From: a virus
Taxonomy: Duplodnaviria; Caudoviricetes
DNA length: 64,000 nt
Direction: 5' to 3' (one strand)
IMG/VR virus record: IMGVR_UViG_2912829908_000001
Coordinates: 3,164 to 67,163 of that record
Of the stretch, positions 6,155 through 35,439 are shown piece after piece (positions within the stretch are counted from its first letter, which is position 1; every line of letters starts with the position of its first letter). The notes beneath the pieces were generated by a model. It was not told the DNA's origin. It ran no database searches and saw only the letters and a list, made by a program, of their open reading frames with translations. The position numbers and the translations under genes were made by a program.

Positions 6155-7333
6155 ATGACGTCAATTAGAGACGAATTTGTGCAAATAAGGCAAGAACGCG
6201 AATTAAGTATACCACGAATTTCTTTAGAAGCGGACATTCACCAGGATTGCTTATACGGACTTGAGGAAGATGGGGGAATAGGTTTTAGGCAGCTTCTACA
6301 TTTATCCAGATATTTATTCGGAGCTGACTACGATCAAAAAATGAGGGAATGGTGTCTAAAGTTAAATTCAACTGAAACTTTGAAGCAAGCCTTTGAGTAT
6401 GCTGCCCTAAAGAGGGATATTGGACTTCTGCAAGAGCTTATTGACCAAAACAGGAATGACCCTGGTTTAAAGAACTACATCAACACTTACACGATCATTT
6501 GTGATTTCATGACAGATAAAATAAACTTCAGTGAGATGTCTTCTAGGATAAGTAAATTAAAGGTATCAAGCGACAAGGATCTGGCCTTGTTTAAAAGGAT
6601 TTATAATTGCGTGTCACTGTACTATCGAAAAGAATTTCTTGAAATGACGAAAGAAGCAAAAGCTATTGATGTAGAATTAAAGAAAATAAATAGCTCAAGA
6701 CAAAGGCAACGAGCGTTTTTTAAAGAGTGTTTTTCGTATAGGTTGTCTGAGATACTGGCACCAGCCTATTTGCATCTTAATGAATTAGATCTATGTCGAA
6801 AACACGCTAAGGTCCTAATCTCTACAGCGTTAAATCAGAAGCATATATCTGATGGGTATTACTGTTTAGCAATGTCCTATCTAGCTGAAAACCCAGAACT
6901 AAGCATAAAGCTCTTAAATCAAAGTAAATTAGCCGCCGAGAAGACAGGATATGATGCGTTAATTAAGATTGCGGACAGCAATTTATTTTTCGCGAAACTT
7001 TACTTCGATTTTAAACAGGGAAGGGTTGAAGTCCCTGATCTAAACCTGCTATCAAAACAACTTCTTTTGGGAGGTGATGCTGACTTTATAGTATACTTCG
7101 ATTATATCCAGCACAAAACAACTCAAGAGGCGTATAAGGGCTGGCGGTATTTTTTAGGGAAGATGAATTTCCTGTTCGCGTCCCTATCTGCTGATTTTTT
7201 ATTAACCTTAGGCGTTGATGAGGATCAAGTCCAAGCACTAAAGTCAATTACATTCGAAAAGGGAGAGGTTATTTATGAAGAAAATTTTATTAGCAGTTTT
7301 AGTTTTAGGGGCGCTGGTCTCAACGTATCTTAG
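6155..7333 (+). CDS. aimR: arbitrium receptor AimR (HTH + TPR, RRNPP family)
   Basis: 392 aa, N-terminal HTH, LKQAFEYAALKRD, helical repeats; followed by a secreted pro-peptide gene. Confidence 0.85.
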   Translation: MTSIRDEFVQIRQERELSIPRISLEADIHQDCLYGLEEDGGIGFRQLLHLSRYLFGADYDQKMREWCLKLNSTETLKQAFEYAALKRDIGLLQELIDQNRNDPGLKNYINTYTIICDFMTDKINFSEMSSRISKLKVSSDKDLALFKRIYNCVSLYYRKEFLEMTKEAKAIDVELKKINSSRQRQRAFFKECFSYRLSEILAPAYLHLNELDLCRKHAKVLISTALNQKHISDGYYCLAMSYLAENPELSIKLLNQSKLAAEKTGYDALIKIADSNLFFAKLYFDFKQGRVEVPDLNLLSKQLLLGGDADFIVYFDYIQHKTTQEAYKGWRYFLGKMNFLFASLSADFLLTLGVDEDQVQALKSITFEKGEVIYEENFISSFSFRGAGLNVS

Positions 7334-7406
7334 TTCAGGTAGCACTCAACAAGCATCGAATGATGATAGTAGCGTCAAGGTTGCAGAAATAAAAGTAGGC
7401 GGATAA
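7275..7406 (+). CDS. aimP: arbitrium pro-peptide AimP, 43 aa MKKILLAVLVLGALVSTYLSSGSTQQASNDDSSVKVAEIKVGG; predicted mature peptide EIKVGG
   Basis: hand-translated, not in ORF track; RBS GGGAGAGG, Sec-type signal peptide, cleavage inferred after V-A. Confidence 0.88.
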   Translation: MKKILLAVLVLGALVSTYLSSGSTQQASNDDSSVKVAEIKVGG

Positions 7407-30306: not shown

Positions 30307-30359
30307 TGTGAGGGCGCCCGTTCAGCGCTCTTTTATTTTTGCGAAAAGGAGACGGTATA

Positions 30360-31160
30360 ATGAAGAGATTACGAGTTATTAATACGGAGACAGGCGAAGA
30401 CTGGTCGGAAATGTACACGCTGCGGCACCGCAACCAAGACGCAGCCTTTCGTCAGCAGCAAGAAAAAACAGCCGATCGGCGCGATTTCTCAAACGCCAAT
30501 ATGTCTAATATTCACGAAGTCTATGACGCTCTTACGACGGCACAGTGCGGCTATCTGATGCTGCTTCAGTGCTACGTCGATTATAACGGTGTCCTTATAA
30601 AATCCAGCCGCAATAAAACGCCGATGACCACTGCGGACATGATGGACGTTTTGCAGCTCGGTAAAAAACCCCGGACCTTTTACGACTTCCTTTCCGCTTG
30701 TACCGAGCACGATATTATCCGGGAAGAGGGCGGCCGCTACAGCGTAAATGACCGCTACCACTTCAAAGGTAATTTCGGTAGCCAGCAAGTCGTCAAGCTA
30801 TACAGCGCGAAGATTAAACGTGTGTACAGCGAAGTGAAGGCGACTGACATCGGCCTGATCTATCGTATGCTGCCGTTTATTCACTACGAAACAAACGCTT
30901 TGTGCGCAAATCCTTTCGAAAAGAATCCGAAGCGTATCCGCTGGTTCAATAAGAAGGAGCTTGCGTCGGCGATCGGTGTTACTTCGGATACGCTCGGACG
31001 GCGCCTAAAGCAGATGAAATTCGACGGAGAGTACGTTGTTGCGCGGATTAAAGTCGGAAGCGAGCCGGAGCGCTACACGTTTAATCCTAACGTATTCTAT
31101 CGACAATCCAAGACACCGGACAAAACGTTGATTGCGATGTTCAACGTTAAGAAGGTATAA
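30360..31160 (+). CDS. RepL-like winged-helix DNA-binding/replication protein
   Basis: two HTH-like regions, YTFNPNVFYR; family call from recall. Confidence 0.55.
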   Translation: MKRLRVINTETGEDWSEMYTLRHRNQDAAFRQQQEKTADRRDFSNANMSNIHEVYDALTTAQCGYLMLLQCYVDYNGVLIKSSRNKTPMTTADMMDVLQLGKKPRTFYDFLSACTEHDIIREEGGRYSVNDRYHFKGNFGSQQVVKLYSAKIKRVYSEVKATDIGLIYRMLPFIHYETNALCANPFEKNPKRIRWFNKKELASAIGVTSDTLGRRLKQMKFDGEYVVARIKVGSEPERYTFNPNVFYRQSKTPDKTLIAMFNVKKV

Positions 31161-31161
31161 T
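31132..31161 (+). promoter_or_regulatory. sigmaA promoter for the mini-gene
   Basis: TTGCGA-18-TATAAT. Confidence 0.7.
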
Positions 31162-31185
31162 TTTACTATATCGGAGGTGAGGCGA

Positions 31186-31257
31186 ATGGGAATGCCACGA
31201 GGAGCTAGTCCGTTAGAAAGCATTATCAGAGGCGCAGGTCCAGTACGCGGAGCATAA
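31186..31257 (+). CDS. 23-aa peptide MGMPRGASPLESIIRGAGPVRGA: tandem SPbeta-type arbitrium-like peptides, no signal peptide
   Basis: hand-translated; SD GGAGGTGA 31173-31180, own promoter and terminator; GMPRGA equals the SPbeta AimP peptide. Confidence 0.88.
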   Translation: MGMPRGASPLESIIRGAGPVRGA

Positions 31258-31260
31258 AAC

Positions 31261-31290
31261 AAAAAAGGACGCCTTATACGGGCGTCTTTT
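31261..31290. terminator. bidirectional intrinsic terminator
   Basis: AAAAAAG-GACGCC-ttatacg-GGCGTC-TTTT between convergent genes. Confidence 0.8.
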
Positions 31291-31435
31291 CTTCGTCATC
31301 CTCCGTTTGTAATTCAAGGACTTCGATCTGCGATTTTAAGATCGCTATGTCACGGCTGTTTAGCTTCGTAGGTAATTCAAAGCTCGCAATTTGCCCGTTT
31401 GTAAGCGCAATGCGGGCGTACTGTTTATCGTCCAT
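31274..31435 (-). CDS. hypothetical protein, 53 aa
   Basis: hand-translated MDDKQYARIALTNGQ...; RBS AAGGAG. Confidence 0.65.
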   Translation of the reverse strand: MDDKQYARIALTNGQIASFELPTKLNSRDIAILKSQIEVLELQTEDDEEKTPV

Positions 31436-31460
31436 TCGTGTAGCTCCTTATTGCGTTATT

Positions 31461-31640
31461 TTAAATATTCTTTTTCATTCCACACCGCCGGCACTCCCGA
31501 AGAAACTTCCCGCTCTTCACCGAGCTTTTGAACAGCGTATAGTCGCAGTTATCACATCGTCCTGCGCGCTTGTCCGGAAATTCCTTGTATTCGTAAGTGA
31601 TCGACGTATCAATGCCGTTAGTCTCGTATTTTTCCTCCAT
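31461..31640 (-). CDS. Zn-ribbon protein, 59 aa
   Basis: MEEKYET...CDNC...CRRC; RBS GGAGG. Confidence 0.7.
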   Translation of the reverse strand: MEEKYETNGIDTSITYEYKEFPDKRAGRCDNCDYTLFKSSVKSGKFLRECRRCGMKKNI

Positions 31641-31770
31641 TTTCGCTGTACCTCCGTGTCCTACATCGTTGTATAGAACGATTATACCACGAAATTACAA
31701 CGAGAGAGCCGTCTCAGACGCCTTCAGGTACGATAGGTATCCGAAAGCTCGAAACGGCTTATTTCGTTCA

Positions 31771-32878: not shown

Positions 32879-34642
32879 TTAAATCGGAATATTTTGATAT
32901 TCTGTGTCGGTTTCGTTGAGCGATAGGGTGCCGGCTATCTTATTCCCGATGACTCGCGAATTAATAGACTCGGAGGTCTTAATCGGATTGTACAACGCGA
33001 AGGAGTTGGTCGAATACACAACGTTTTCCTTCACGAGCGCACCGTCAGTGTTTTTCGTTTGAATTCCGTAACCGCCGGAAGCCTTCCGATTAAACGTTAT
33101 GTCATTTCCGGATATTTCAGGTTTTTTACCGCCGACGACGTAAATCGGGATCAAACATTTCGCGTCAGTGATGTCGTTATTCTTAATACGAACGGTTCGC
33201 CCCTCAGCGCTTTCTCCGTAAATAGCCATGTTTGCCGGTTTTGGTATACGGCTGTATTCGATATCCACGTCGCTTCCCTTATCGAAAGATATAGCGTATC
33301 CTGTTGCGCCAGAGTAGTCGGTAAGATCAATATCGTTATCTACCAGTTTCGCCGAAGACCGCGTAACCACGACGCCTTGCTTACTGCGCTTAATGTCGTT
33401 CGATTTCGCTTTAACGTTAACAGAGTCGGCAATCTCTATCGCAGCAATATCCGAATCGTGGAGATCGTTACCTTCGAACGTTATGTCTTTTGAGTTACGC
33501 GCGCTACATAATTTACCCGGACAGTGATTTACGATGTTATCCGAAAACTTAACGTTCTTGGCTTCGAAGGTGGACAATGCGGTGCCGTCAGCGCTAAGCT
33601 CCGAAATTGTATTTCCGGATACTGAAACGTCTGCTCCGCGAACGTCAATGCCGCTGCTGAAGCCTTTTATCGTATTTCCGGTGATTGTCGTGTTATTTCC
33701 GGTAAAGCCAGCCGACACACCGAGGCTCGTAATTGCGGTATATTTCTTGTCCGTACGTACAAACGTATTATTCGAGATAGTGGTGTCAGTTCCGAATCCG
33801 TAAGAGATCGAGTTATCCGAATAGTTTCCAGAAATAACGACCTCGTATCCGCTGAAATTACAAACGGACTGCAATCTATTTCCTTTGAAAGTGTTATTCG
33901 TTATCCTCACATTGCGAGGCTCTTCGTAGTCGATATCGCCTTCACCGTAACCCTCGATATCAATGCCGAACATAGGCTTGCAGCCATCATTTATGCCAGC
34001 GTTGGTTATTACGTTTTTATCGATTTTCACATCCTCGCCGCCAGTGACCGATATATTGTTTCGACGAGCGCCGTCTAATTTACAACGCTCAATCGTAACA
34101 TTGCGGGCAGGCCGGTAAGTCGTCCAAGGAACGTTTAACATGCCTTGCGCGTTCACCATAATACAATCGCCTGTACACTCAGCTATGTCAACACCTTCAA
34201 TTACGACATCTTTAGCACCATGTACGTTTATGCCATAGCCCCATTCATGAGTTTCCTTCTTTTTTAGGTTCCCGTGCCCGGTAAAGTCGTGCTGATAACG
34301 TTCGCCGCGTATCTTACCGCCTTTTATCGTCACCTCTTCGACCTCTCCAATGTAGATACAGGAATATCCGTAAGAACTGTTTGGTTCTACAATAAGTTCT
34401 GCTTTTGGATGCAATATTAGGGCCATATGTGACGGTACACGTATCCCGGCTCCTTCTTCCGGGTTAACTGCAATACGGTTTACTGCGTCGATAAGGTACT
34501 TTCCCTTAGGGATTTCTACTTCAGAATAACCGGCCTCAGCCGCCTCGTATATTGCGCGATTAATTCCTTGTGTAGTCATAGCCGCCTCAGTTCCGTCCCA
34601 ACGCACATCGTACTTTTCAGCTTCCAACGTATATCGCATCAT
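32879..34642 (-). CDS. right-handed parallel beta-helix (pectin lyase-like) protein
   Basis: many I/N/G beta-helix repeats, GDCI, RRNNISV; no signal peptide. Confidence 0.8.
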   Translation of the reverse strand: MMRYTLEAEKYDVRWDGTEAAMTTQGINRAIYEAAEAGYSEVEIPKGKYLIDAVNRIAVNPEEGAGIRVPSHMALILHPKAELIVEPNSSYGYSCIYIGEVEEVTIKGGKIRGERYQHDFTGHGNLKKKETHEWGYGINVHGAKDVVIEGVDIAECTGDCIMVNAQGMLNVPWTTYRPARNVTIERCKLDGARRNNISVTGGEDVKIDKNVITNAGINDGCKPMFGIDIEGYGEGDIDYEEPRNVRITNNTFKGNRLQSVCNFSGYEVVISGNYSDNSISYGFGTDTTISNNTFVRTDKKYTAITSLGVSAGFTGNNTTITGNTIKGFSSGIDVRGADVSVSGNTISELSADGTALSTFEAKNVKFSDNIVNHCPGKLCSARNSKDITFEGNDLHDSDIAAIEIADSVNVKAKSNDIKRSKQGVVVTRSSAKLVDNDIDLTDYSGATGYAISFDKGSDVDIEYSRIPKPANMAIYGESAEGRTVRIKNNDITDAKCLIPIYVVGGKKPEISGNDITFNRKASGGYGIQTKNTDGALVKENVVYSTNSFALYNPIKTSESINSRVIGNKIAGTLSLNETDTEYQNIPI

Positions 34643-35439
34643 TATTCGTTACCTCCAACGTTATAGTTTTCGTTAATGAACTCCGACAGCAGCCCGGCAA
34701 ACTTATAGAACGTCTCGGTTTCGGTTCCGGCGCGTCCGTTAAGCGAGAACTTACCGAACATGCTTTTACGCAATCCGGTACTGAGCTCGATCTGTAAGCT
34801 TTCGCCGGTTATGCACTTATTCGCTATGTTCGCGCTACTTGCGCCTGCGAATCGATGTCCTGCGCCTACGAGTTCGGCACTAAAGCCGGCAGCATTCATG
34901 CGATCTACTAACGTCTGTCCGCGGACCGGATCGGTGCCACCTACGATAATATGCTCGGCGCTTTCGCTGTATCCGTGGAGCGATATAGCGCGATGGTGTC
35001 GCGCAACTAAGGCAAGCGCAGTTGGTTCGTCGAAATGGGTACTCGTGATGTGGAGGTCGAAGCCGTTCGGCGTCTTAAGAGATTCGAATAGATACGTAGA
35101 ATAGTCGGTACTGAGTTCGCGAGCAAGTTCGCTAGTTCCGCCTTCAATACTGCCGCCGTGTGGCGCTAATATTAGAACGGGCGTGGTGCGGTCGATTGCG
35201 AAAATGTTGTAGTTCGTCTCGGGTTCGTTGGCTTGGAGTTCGGCAAAGTTGCGGTAAGCGTCGGTGGCTTGCGCGGTGGCTGAAGTGGATGCGAATAACA
35301 TTGCGCATAGAATAAACGCTGTGATATACTGGAAGTGCTTCGTTCGATTCGGACGGTGCAGCTTTGCTTTGGTCGGTGGGGCTGCGCCTCCGTTTCGTTC
35401 TTTAATCGCCTTATTCAGTTTTCGTGAATCATTAATCAT
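34642..35439 (-). CDS. poly-gamma-glutamate hydrolase (PghP family), N-terminally anchored or secreted
   Basis: D.Y.NFAEL, LAPHGGSIEGGTSE, LHITSTHFDEP, SLHGY, N.N.N......QIELS..LR. Confidence 0.88.
   Translation of the reverse strand: MINDSRKLNKAIKERNGGAAPPTKAKLHRPNRTKHFQYITAFILCAMLFASTSATAQATDAYRNFAELQANEPETNYNIFAIDRTTPVLILAPHGGSIEGGTSELARELSTDYSTYLFESLKTPNGFDLHITSTHFDEPTALALVARHHRAISLHGYSESAEHIIVGGTDPVRGQTLVDRMNAAGFSAELVGAGHRFAGASSANIANKCITGESLQIELSTGLRKSMFGKFSLNGRAGTETETFYKFAGLLSEFINENYNVGGNE

Follow-up and report, generated by a model that had tools for sequence, protein, structure and literature searches.

A family of leaderless phage mini-genes encodes strings of foreign arbitrium peptides and may silence rival SPbeta-like phages

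Introduction

The earliest viral communication system to be reported was arbitrium. Its receptor, AimR, grips a signaling hexapeptide by the free N-terminal amine and the C-terminal carboxylate (PMC6458997), and a foreign peptide can promote lysogeny of a receiving phage or block its induction, to the benefit of the phage that emits it (bioRxiv 10.1101/2025.10.13.681967; PMC13220667). Such cross-talk was not demonstrated until 2025-26, and in the cases described it arises as a by-product of signal similarity. Here, we describe a 23-codon mini-gene, at positions 31186-31257 of a 64,000-nucleotide stretch of the Caudoviricetes record IMGVR_UViG_2912829908_000001, that strings three arbitrium-type hexapeptides together and has neither a signal peptide nor a receptor gene beside it. 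The stretch, called the window below, is an IMG/VR provirus record of 67 kb minus its first 3.2 kb.

Morons are promoter-gene-terminator inserts that are expressed from prophages. A leaderless peptide of the RRNPP/Rgg type, that of the SIP-RopB system of Streptococcus pyogenes (Do et al. 2017), is cited in PMC12988980. A full-text literature search on the unit sequences and on arbitrium or aimP, combined with leaderless, orphan, tandem, and decoy, returned no description of a gene like the one reported here, and the terms orphan, tandem, and decoy are absent from the body text of the two cross-talk papers (10.1101/2025.10.13.681967 and PMC13220667; tandem occurs in a reference title only). The closest published work is this arbitrium cross-talk, which concerns the emitter's own secreted AimP.

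Results

Direct reading and a six-frame scan placed the mini-gene on the plus strand, from an ATG at 31186 to a TAA at 31255-31257 (23 codons plus stop). Its 23-residue product is M-GMPRGA-SPLE-SIIRGA-GPVRGA-stop. Unit 1 (31189-31206) is the SPbeta signal GMPRGA, which comes straight after Met-1 and places Gly at position 2. The linker SPLE (31207-31218) joins it to unit 2 (31219-31236), SIIRGA, itself a natural clade-2 arbitrium signal (bioRxiv 10.1101/2025.10.13.681967), and unit 3 (31237-31254), GPVRGA, abuts the stop codon. The RGA codons differ among the three units (CGA GGA GCT, AGA GGC GCA, and CGC GGA GCA). A preliminary description of this DNA had proposed the same open reading frame (ORF) and the same codon differences, and both the direct reading and the scan bore it out. 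Its statements that the gene lacks a signal peptide and an adjacent aimR also held: we found no hydrophobic N-terminus or Sec-type signal peptide in the 23-residue product or in the upstream in-frame extension from the TTG at 31132, and no aimR adjoins the mini-gene, the sole AimR of the window being encoded at 6155-7333.

The RGA tripeptide occurs 42 times in the 128,000 codon positions of the window, and three occurrences within one 23-codon ORF are expected about 1 × 10−3 times, an expectation computed before counting exact matches to known signals. Window-wide, only two ORFs of at most 50 codons that are preceded by a Shine-Dalgarno sequence end in GA or GG, the mini-gene and the phage's resident aimP. 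A chance origin of the triple-RGA ORF is excluded.

Next, we looked into the relatives of the mini-gene. About 20 related prophage loci hold it, in 14 distinct peptide versions, all of which begin with M-G, lack a leader, end on a unit that abuts the stop codon and a terminator, and are preceded by a common leader with TATAAT and a Shine-Dalgarno sequence. Examples are M-GMPRGA-NPLE-SAIRGA-SPSRGA, M-GMPRGA-SPLE-GIVRGA, and M-GMPRGA-SPLE-SIIRGA-GPAE-SASRGA; a four-unit version reads M-GELNPGA-GPQLY-GMPRGA-SPLE-SIIRGA-GPAE-SASRGA, and hosts of the licheniformis group carry M-GFTVGA-KELPKPKY-GFPRGA. The linker thus has the variants NPLE and SSLE, with GPAE, GPQLY, and KELPKPKY also occurring in relatives. 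Seven of the nine xxxRGA unit types, and GFTVGA in addition, are exact natural signals, and GMPRGA, SAIRGA, GIVRGA, SASRGA, SPSRGA, SIIRGA, and GFTVGA are named as clade-2 signals in the literature (10.1101/2025.10.13.681967; PMC13220667; PMC6458997). The preliminary description had placed SIIRGA one residue away from the phi3T signal SAIRGA; beyond this, SIIRGA is a natural signal in its own right.

The indels among versions are in frame, and whole units are lost or gained. Across seven versions, the constant codons (Met, unit 1, the linker, and the RGA of unit 2) had a proportion of nonsynonymous differences (pN) of 0.024 versus a proportion of synonymous differences (pS) of 0.323 (pN/pS = 0.075), and the three specificity positions of unit 2 had a pN of 0.33. 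Furthermore, identical units are written in several synonymous DNA versions (five for GMPRGA, four for SAIRGA, and four for SASRGA). The pN/pS ratio and the synonymous unit versions therefore indicate that the peptide is the object of selection, and such changes as are found turn one real signal into another. Judged from the same codons, the linker is under purifying selection, and it may serve as a cleavage site. An alignment of the window's GPVRGA with the GPAE-SASRGA of relatives is accounted for by a 12-nt deletion plus one substitution, and GPVRGA looks like a deletion derivative of that pair. The comparison of homologs that the preliminary description had proposed gave the result it anticipated: the hexapeptides differ in identity, whereas their RGA, the start codon, and the position of the stop codon are conserved. 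One locus (L018, 2348-2410) encodes a fused form, M-GEIKPGA-NPLE-SA-SPSRGA, in which an in-frame deletion truncates the middle unit and leaves the C-terminal SPSRGA intact. An antisense 85-codon ORF at 31005-31262 was rejected, as both the selection and the unit structure follow the plus-strand frame.

These data bear on the idea that the locus is a chance ORF, a leader peptide, or a noncoding spacer without a peptide function. The ORF is indeed very short and escapes gene finders (no gene is called at its position in CP016395.1, the NCBI record of the Bacillus chromosome that contains the window), and tblastn of the 23-mer against the 50,697 phage records of INPHARED gave no match. Against this stand the low pN/pS on the constant codons, the whole-unit indels, the units that exactly copy natural signals, the conserved expression signals, and the lack of any Rfam match at the mini-gene, and the comparative data effectively refute the idea.

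We also found 17 natural aimP genes ending in VA/GMPRGA, in low-GC parts of IMG/VR prophage records that are mostly 110 to 140 kb long, and one ending in IA/GFPRGA. The natural AimPs found start with MKK followed by a hydrophobic stretch, and a strong AimR lay upstream in both of the two cases checked (GMPRGA in L250 and GFPRGA). The first units EIKPGA, EIKLGA, EIRPGA, and ELNPGA resemble the signals of the siblings' own clade; a scan of IMG/VR for a natural aimP ending in EIKPGA-TAA, covering TAA stops only, found none.

The mini-gene sits in the genome as an insertion. In phage 268TH007, the stop codon of the upstream gene is directly followed by the homologous terminator, and the window holds about 95 extra bases in between. 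Blastn of the cassette region against the same INPHARED collection aligned nothing beyond the final 41 nt of the upstream gene, in phi18-2, 268TH007, and 268TH002; all three isolated relatives are without the cassette. The mini-gene lies at the same place in 18 of 50 IMG/VR loci that encode the upstream protein and is absent from about 25, and it is also present in the genomes of Bacillus paralicheniformis KJ-16 and Bacillus glycinifermentans GO-13. TATAAT occurs in all carriers and in no noncarriers. In L140 (IMG/VR 2912865023_000006, reverse strand, around base 1112 of the locus), the cassette encodes M-GMPRGA-SPLE-SIVRGA behind a different upstream gene and retains TGCGA-18-TATAAT, with TG preceding the −10 box, which suggests that the putative promoter belongs to the mobile unit. 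Among the features of a moron, insertion, patchy distribution, and a terminator are thus seen directly, and the promoter is represented by a consensus match and a weak hint from RNA contigs.

That consensus match, TTGCGA (31132-31137) and TATAAT (31156-31161) at a spacing of 18 on the plus strand, agrees with the consensus at 10 of 12 positions and is the top-scoring promoter-like site within the scanned region. The stop codon (31158-31160) of the upstream 273-amino-acid gene falls within its −10 box, and the putative −35 box lies in coding sequence that noncarriers also possess; we take the site to be a probable promoter. The Shine-Dalgarno sequence GGAGGTGA (31173-31180, plus strand) lies 5 nt before the ATG and is invariant across all carriers. 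A bidirectional intrinsic terminator (31268-31296), consisting of a strong hairpin at 31268-31286 and then a T-run, is shared with the convergent genes. The sigmaA-like promoter, the Shine-Dalgarno sequence, and the terminator named in the preliminary description are accordingly all present as sequence elements.

For a relative, two RNA runs of a single study gave contigs that start at 31166 and at about 31170, marking a possible plus-strand transcription start at 31166-31170, 5 to 9 nt past the −10 box. The upstream gene has a 5-fold lower depth in these contigs, with a gap at 31099-31166. The contig starts fit a promoter of the cassette's own and are a weak hint of one, given that RNA contigs carry no strand and the convergent genes are strongly covered, so that antisense read-through could explain the starts. 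In the RNA runs X7 and X14, long contigs span the relative's whole region and are uninformative on transcription of the mini-gene itself.

We then asked how the units relate to the carriers' own signals. In none of the 13 carriers with a known own signal (DIRVGA, ELRPGG, INAIGG, ANQLGG, or EIKVGG) is that signal a unit of the mini-gene. Furthermore, B. glycinifermentans GO-13 carries the mini-gene M-GFTVGA-...-GFPRGA together with the carrier's own AimR, which is paired with ANQLGG. A separate contig of this genome encodes a low-GC AimR (286 bits) accompanied by an aimP whose mature product is GFPRGA, identical to the last mini-gene unit. The earlier suggestion that a co-resident prophage is kept uninduced fits this co-resident target system; the effect on the prophage would follow if the peptide acts as proposed below. 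No natural GFTVGA aimP was found in the two carrier host genomes searched, GO-13 among them.

We also looked for forgery in the reverse direction and found no leaderless copy of the window's EIKVGG, no leaderless DIRVGA copy in IMG/VR, and no leaderless ANQLGG copy in the GO-13 genome. Four metagenome viral contigs (L280, L283, L285, and L288) share an identical short frame that ends in RNRDIRVGA-stop, lacks a Met, and is closely preceded by a stop codon; it could have arisen by chance, or it could be a leaderless copy of DIRVGA that uses an unusual start.

The composition of the units also bears on a host target. The peptide or its fragments could act on an arbitrium-responsive pathway of the host, on another RRNPP receptor, or on Opp, rather than on the AimR of a rival. 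SAIRGA is reported to alter colony development and sporulation in Bacillus subtilis in a 2026 preprint (10.64898/2026.08.23.746533). A single host target would leave unexplained the swapping among many phage signals, the combination of units, and the exclusion of the carrier's own signal, and we regard this account as very unlikely.

The resident arbitrium system lies 24 kb from the mini-gene, inside a low-GC island (0.38 versus about 0.49). Its aimR (6155-7333, plus strand) matches PF22871 with 83 bits against a cutoff of 26.7, and its aimP (7275-7406, plus strand) overlaps aimR, has a signal peptide, and ends in EIKVGG. The earlier claim that the phage's own signal is the unrelated EIKVGG is thereby confirmed. 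The resident AimR is only 23% identical to an SPbeta-type AimR and belongs to a different clade. Among siblings, AimR alleles are 29 to 57% identical while neighboring genes are 88 to 98% identical; the resident arbitrium module is exchanged among them as an allele. The aimP gene and the 3' end of aimR share about 59 nt in every sibling; the signals of the siblings are DIRVGA, ELRPGG, INAIGG, INIIGG, ANQLGG, DPVPGG, GIKVGG, and EIKVGG.

The nearest phage relatives of the window are the B. subtilis phages 268TH007 and 268TH002 (82% DNA identity), with phi18-2 more distant. The mini-gene closes a rightward block that encodes an N6-methylase, a small sigma-like factor, an unknown protein, and the 273-amino-acid protein, which belongs to phrog_9501 (unknown function) and has a subthreshold match to a Crp-type helix-turn-helix domain (18.8 bits versus a cutoff of 27). 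A terminator-like hairpin at 30310-30332 stands just before the ribosome-binding site of the 273-amino-acid gene, and this gene and the mini-gene thus lie between two terminators.

The block convergent to the mini-gene encodes small proteins, a beta-helix protein, and a poly-gamma-glutamate hydrolase. At 32879-35439 (minus strand), the NosD-like beta-helix protein and the poly-gamma-glutamate hydrolase are encoded together and are likely a capsule depolymerase pair for infecting Bacillus hosts that produce poly-gamma-glutamate. The convergent small genes, including a 59-amino-acid gene (31461-31674, minus strand; phrog_8829/DUF8096), are the deepest in the relative's RNA contigs (181 to 562 versus 5 to 28 for neighbors), which hints at a prophage-expressed island. 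At 31449-31459, the X7 and X14 contigs have about 1.3 kb of extra sequence in place of 9 bases; judging by these contigs, this site next to the mini-gene is a variable slot for accessory genes.

Discussion

We consider it probable that the mini-gene is a moron-like cassette whose trimmed product switches off the AimR of rival SPbeta-like phages inside the producing cell. The cassette, made up of a −10 box, a Shine-Dalgarno sequence, the 23-codon ORF, and a terminator, would have entered the genome right behind a conserved early-region gene, separating it from its terminator. The leaderless product of the cassette would be made in the cytoplasm, and it must be cut to act, because AimR binds both free termini of its ligand. 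Methionine aminopeptidase would expose the N-terminus of unit 1, GMPRGA (Gly-2 is present in all 14 versions), and the stop codon would supply the free carboxylate of the last unit. Host peptidases may then cut after RGA and after the linker-terminal Glu or Tyr, releasing free hexapeptides equal to the clade-2 signals of rivals. These would bind the rivals' AimR and switch off aimX. As a consequence, an SPbeta-like phage infecting the lysogen would choose lysogeny over killing the cell, and a co-resident SPbeta-like prophage would stay uninduced, with the carrier free to act on its own signal, EIKVGG. Effects of this kind are on record for non-cognate clade-2 peptides, which raised lysogenization of the receiver about 10-fold in the emitter's lysogen, lowered induction, and favored the emitter (10.1101/2025.10.13.681967; PMC13220667).

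The preliminary description had already read the product as a multivalent decoy. Its units are foreign and never the carrier's own signal, as that reading had it; translation, processing, action in the cytoplasm, and an effect on SPbeta-type phages are steps that we infer.

Several points weigh against this reading. The 22-mer left after removal of Met would need two to four exact cuts by putative host peptidases, and free oligopeptides are usually degraded fast in the cytoplasm. The Glu or Tyr at the end of a linker suits secreted Bacillus proteases, such as Mpr and subtilisin, no less than it would suit an enzyme of the cytoplasm. Translation and the peptide product are themselves deduced from sequence features. 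The internal units of tandem Phr propeptides are released by extracellular enzymes, WprA and Bpr (PMC11343458). The units SIVRGA, EIKPGA, EIKLGA, EIRPGA, and ELNPGA of relatives are unmatched to natural signals. The preliminary description had likened GPVRGA to other xxxRGA peptides of SPbeta-like phages; no natural aimP ending in GPVRGA-TAA was found in IMG/VR, where TAA stops only were scanned. GPVRGA differs by a single residue from GIVRGA and from GVVRGA, and the receptors of these two signals accept substitutions at position 2 (PMC13220667). Only a single genome showed a carrier together with a target system, and the IMG hosts of natural-GMPRGA prophages (17) did not overlap with those of carriers (17), in samples too small to be informative.

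In a second account, the forged signals act in public. The peptide would build up in the cytoplasm as the carrier grows lytically and be freed at lysis, or exit the cell without a leader; secreted proteases would trim it into hexapeptides, and neighboring cells would import the products via Opp. SPbeta-like rivals nearby would then enter lysogeny sooner or remain dormant, so that more hosts are left to the carrier. We judge this unlikely on balance; release at lysis with extracellular processing is nevertheless a serious rival to the cytoplasmic route, because secreted WprA and Bpr release internal tandem-Phr units, and they free the C-terminal pheromones as well (PMC11343458). The linkers end in Glu or Tyr and the units in Ala, and natural pro-AimPs are also cut after Ala (VA/GMPRGA and IA/GFPRGA). 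Conditioned-medium and coinfection experiments showed that a foreign signal raises the emitter's fitness (10.1101/2025.10.13.681967). In addition, the mini-gene ends an early-region rightward operon with a sigma-factor gene, and lytic cotranscription is possible. A signal peptide, however, would serve such a purpose earlier and better; the phage's own aimP has one, whereas all 14 versions lack it and have unit 1 right at the Met-Gly start. A public signal would also help noncarriers, and the cassette keeps its own −10 box in two contexts, like prophage-expressed morons.

We therefore favor action in the cytoplasm, because all versions are leaderless although the phage's own aimP has a leader, and because the cassette has the look of a moron expressed from a prophage, and a signal kept private would protect the carrier's host only. 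The direction of the effect might also be reversed: an unprocessed or partly processed peptide could occupy the rival AimR without inducing the inactive conformation, or block entry of the true signal, leaving rivals deaf and lytic. The full-length product does have extended termini that AimR would not canonically accept. Pushing a superinfecting rival to lysis, however, would kill the carrier's own lysogen, and agonism is indicated by the exact copying of agonist signals, whose N-terminal (once Met is removed) and C-terminal ends are native; we hold such antagonism to be very unlikely.

Taken more broadly, we lean toward the view that dedicated, receptor-less, polyvalent counterfeit-signal genes exist, with units swapped to track local rivals and with the effect of forcing dormancy inside the lysogen. 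If this is true, signal forgery is an evolved weapon in phage-phage conflict, and the mini-gene would be the first known gene whose sole purpose is to counterfeit a communication signal of another virus. Such forgery would help explain the fast diversification of arbitrium alleles, and the cassettes would be natural polyvalent constructs for testing AimR jamming. Moreover, such a gene would show that decisive phage functions can reside in ORFs far below gene-caller cutoffs.

Among described systems, the cassette resembles phage morons in being a compact insert between conserved genes that is patchy among close relatives and has a terminator and a −10 box of its own; unlike known morons, its cargo is a string of rival signaling peptides, a moron function that we have not seen reported. 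SIP is reportedly a single leaderless peptide acting on the producer's own receptor, RopB, and no forgery directed against a competitor. The mini-gene shares with SIP-RopB a tiny leaderless ORF and a product that would act on a peptide-binding regulator in the cytoplasm. Yet the carrier lacks a receptor for the mini-gene units, its only AimR being of another clade and having its own secreted AimP. Several units per precursor, with internal and C-terminal ones freed by proteolysis, also occur in the tandemly duplicated Phr propeptides that phages encode alongside Rap (Felipe-Ruiz et al. 2024, PMC11343458); in contrast to the mini-gene, Phr precursors are secreted and paired with their own Rap receptor, which their units serve.

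The nearest likeness in product is to AimP itself (GMPRGA of SPbeta, SAIRGA of phi3T, and GIVRGA of Goe11), with identical mature hexapeptides, a last unit that ends at the stop codon, and AimR as the presumed target. Of the window's units, GMPRGA and SIIRGA are exact natural signals, whereas the last, GPVRGA, is undocumented. Unlike AimP, the mini-gene product lacks a Sec signal peptide, neither aimR nor aimX adjoins the gene, and each ORF encodes two to four units, all foreign to the carrier. As in arbitrium cross-talk (Manley et al., 10.1101/2025.10.13.681967; Gallego-del-Sol et al., Cell 2026, PMC13220667), a peptide would repress the AimR of another phage. In cross-talk, however, it is the emitter's own secreted AimP that resembles the receiver's, whereas here the peptides are encoded by a separate, dedicated, receptor-less, and polyvalent gene.

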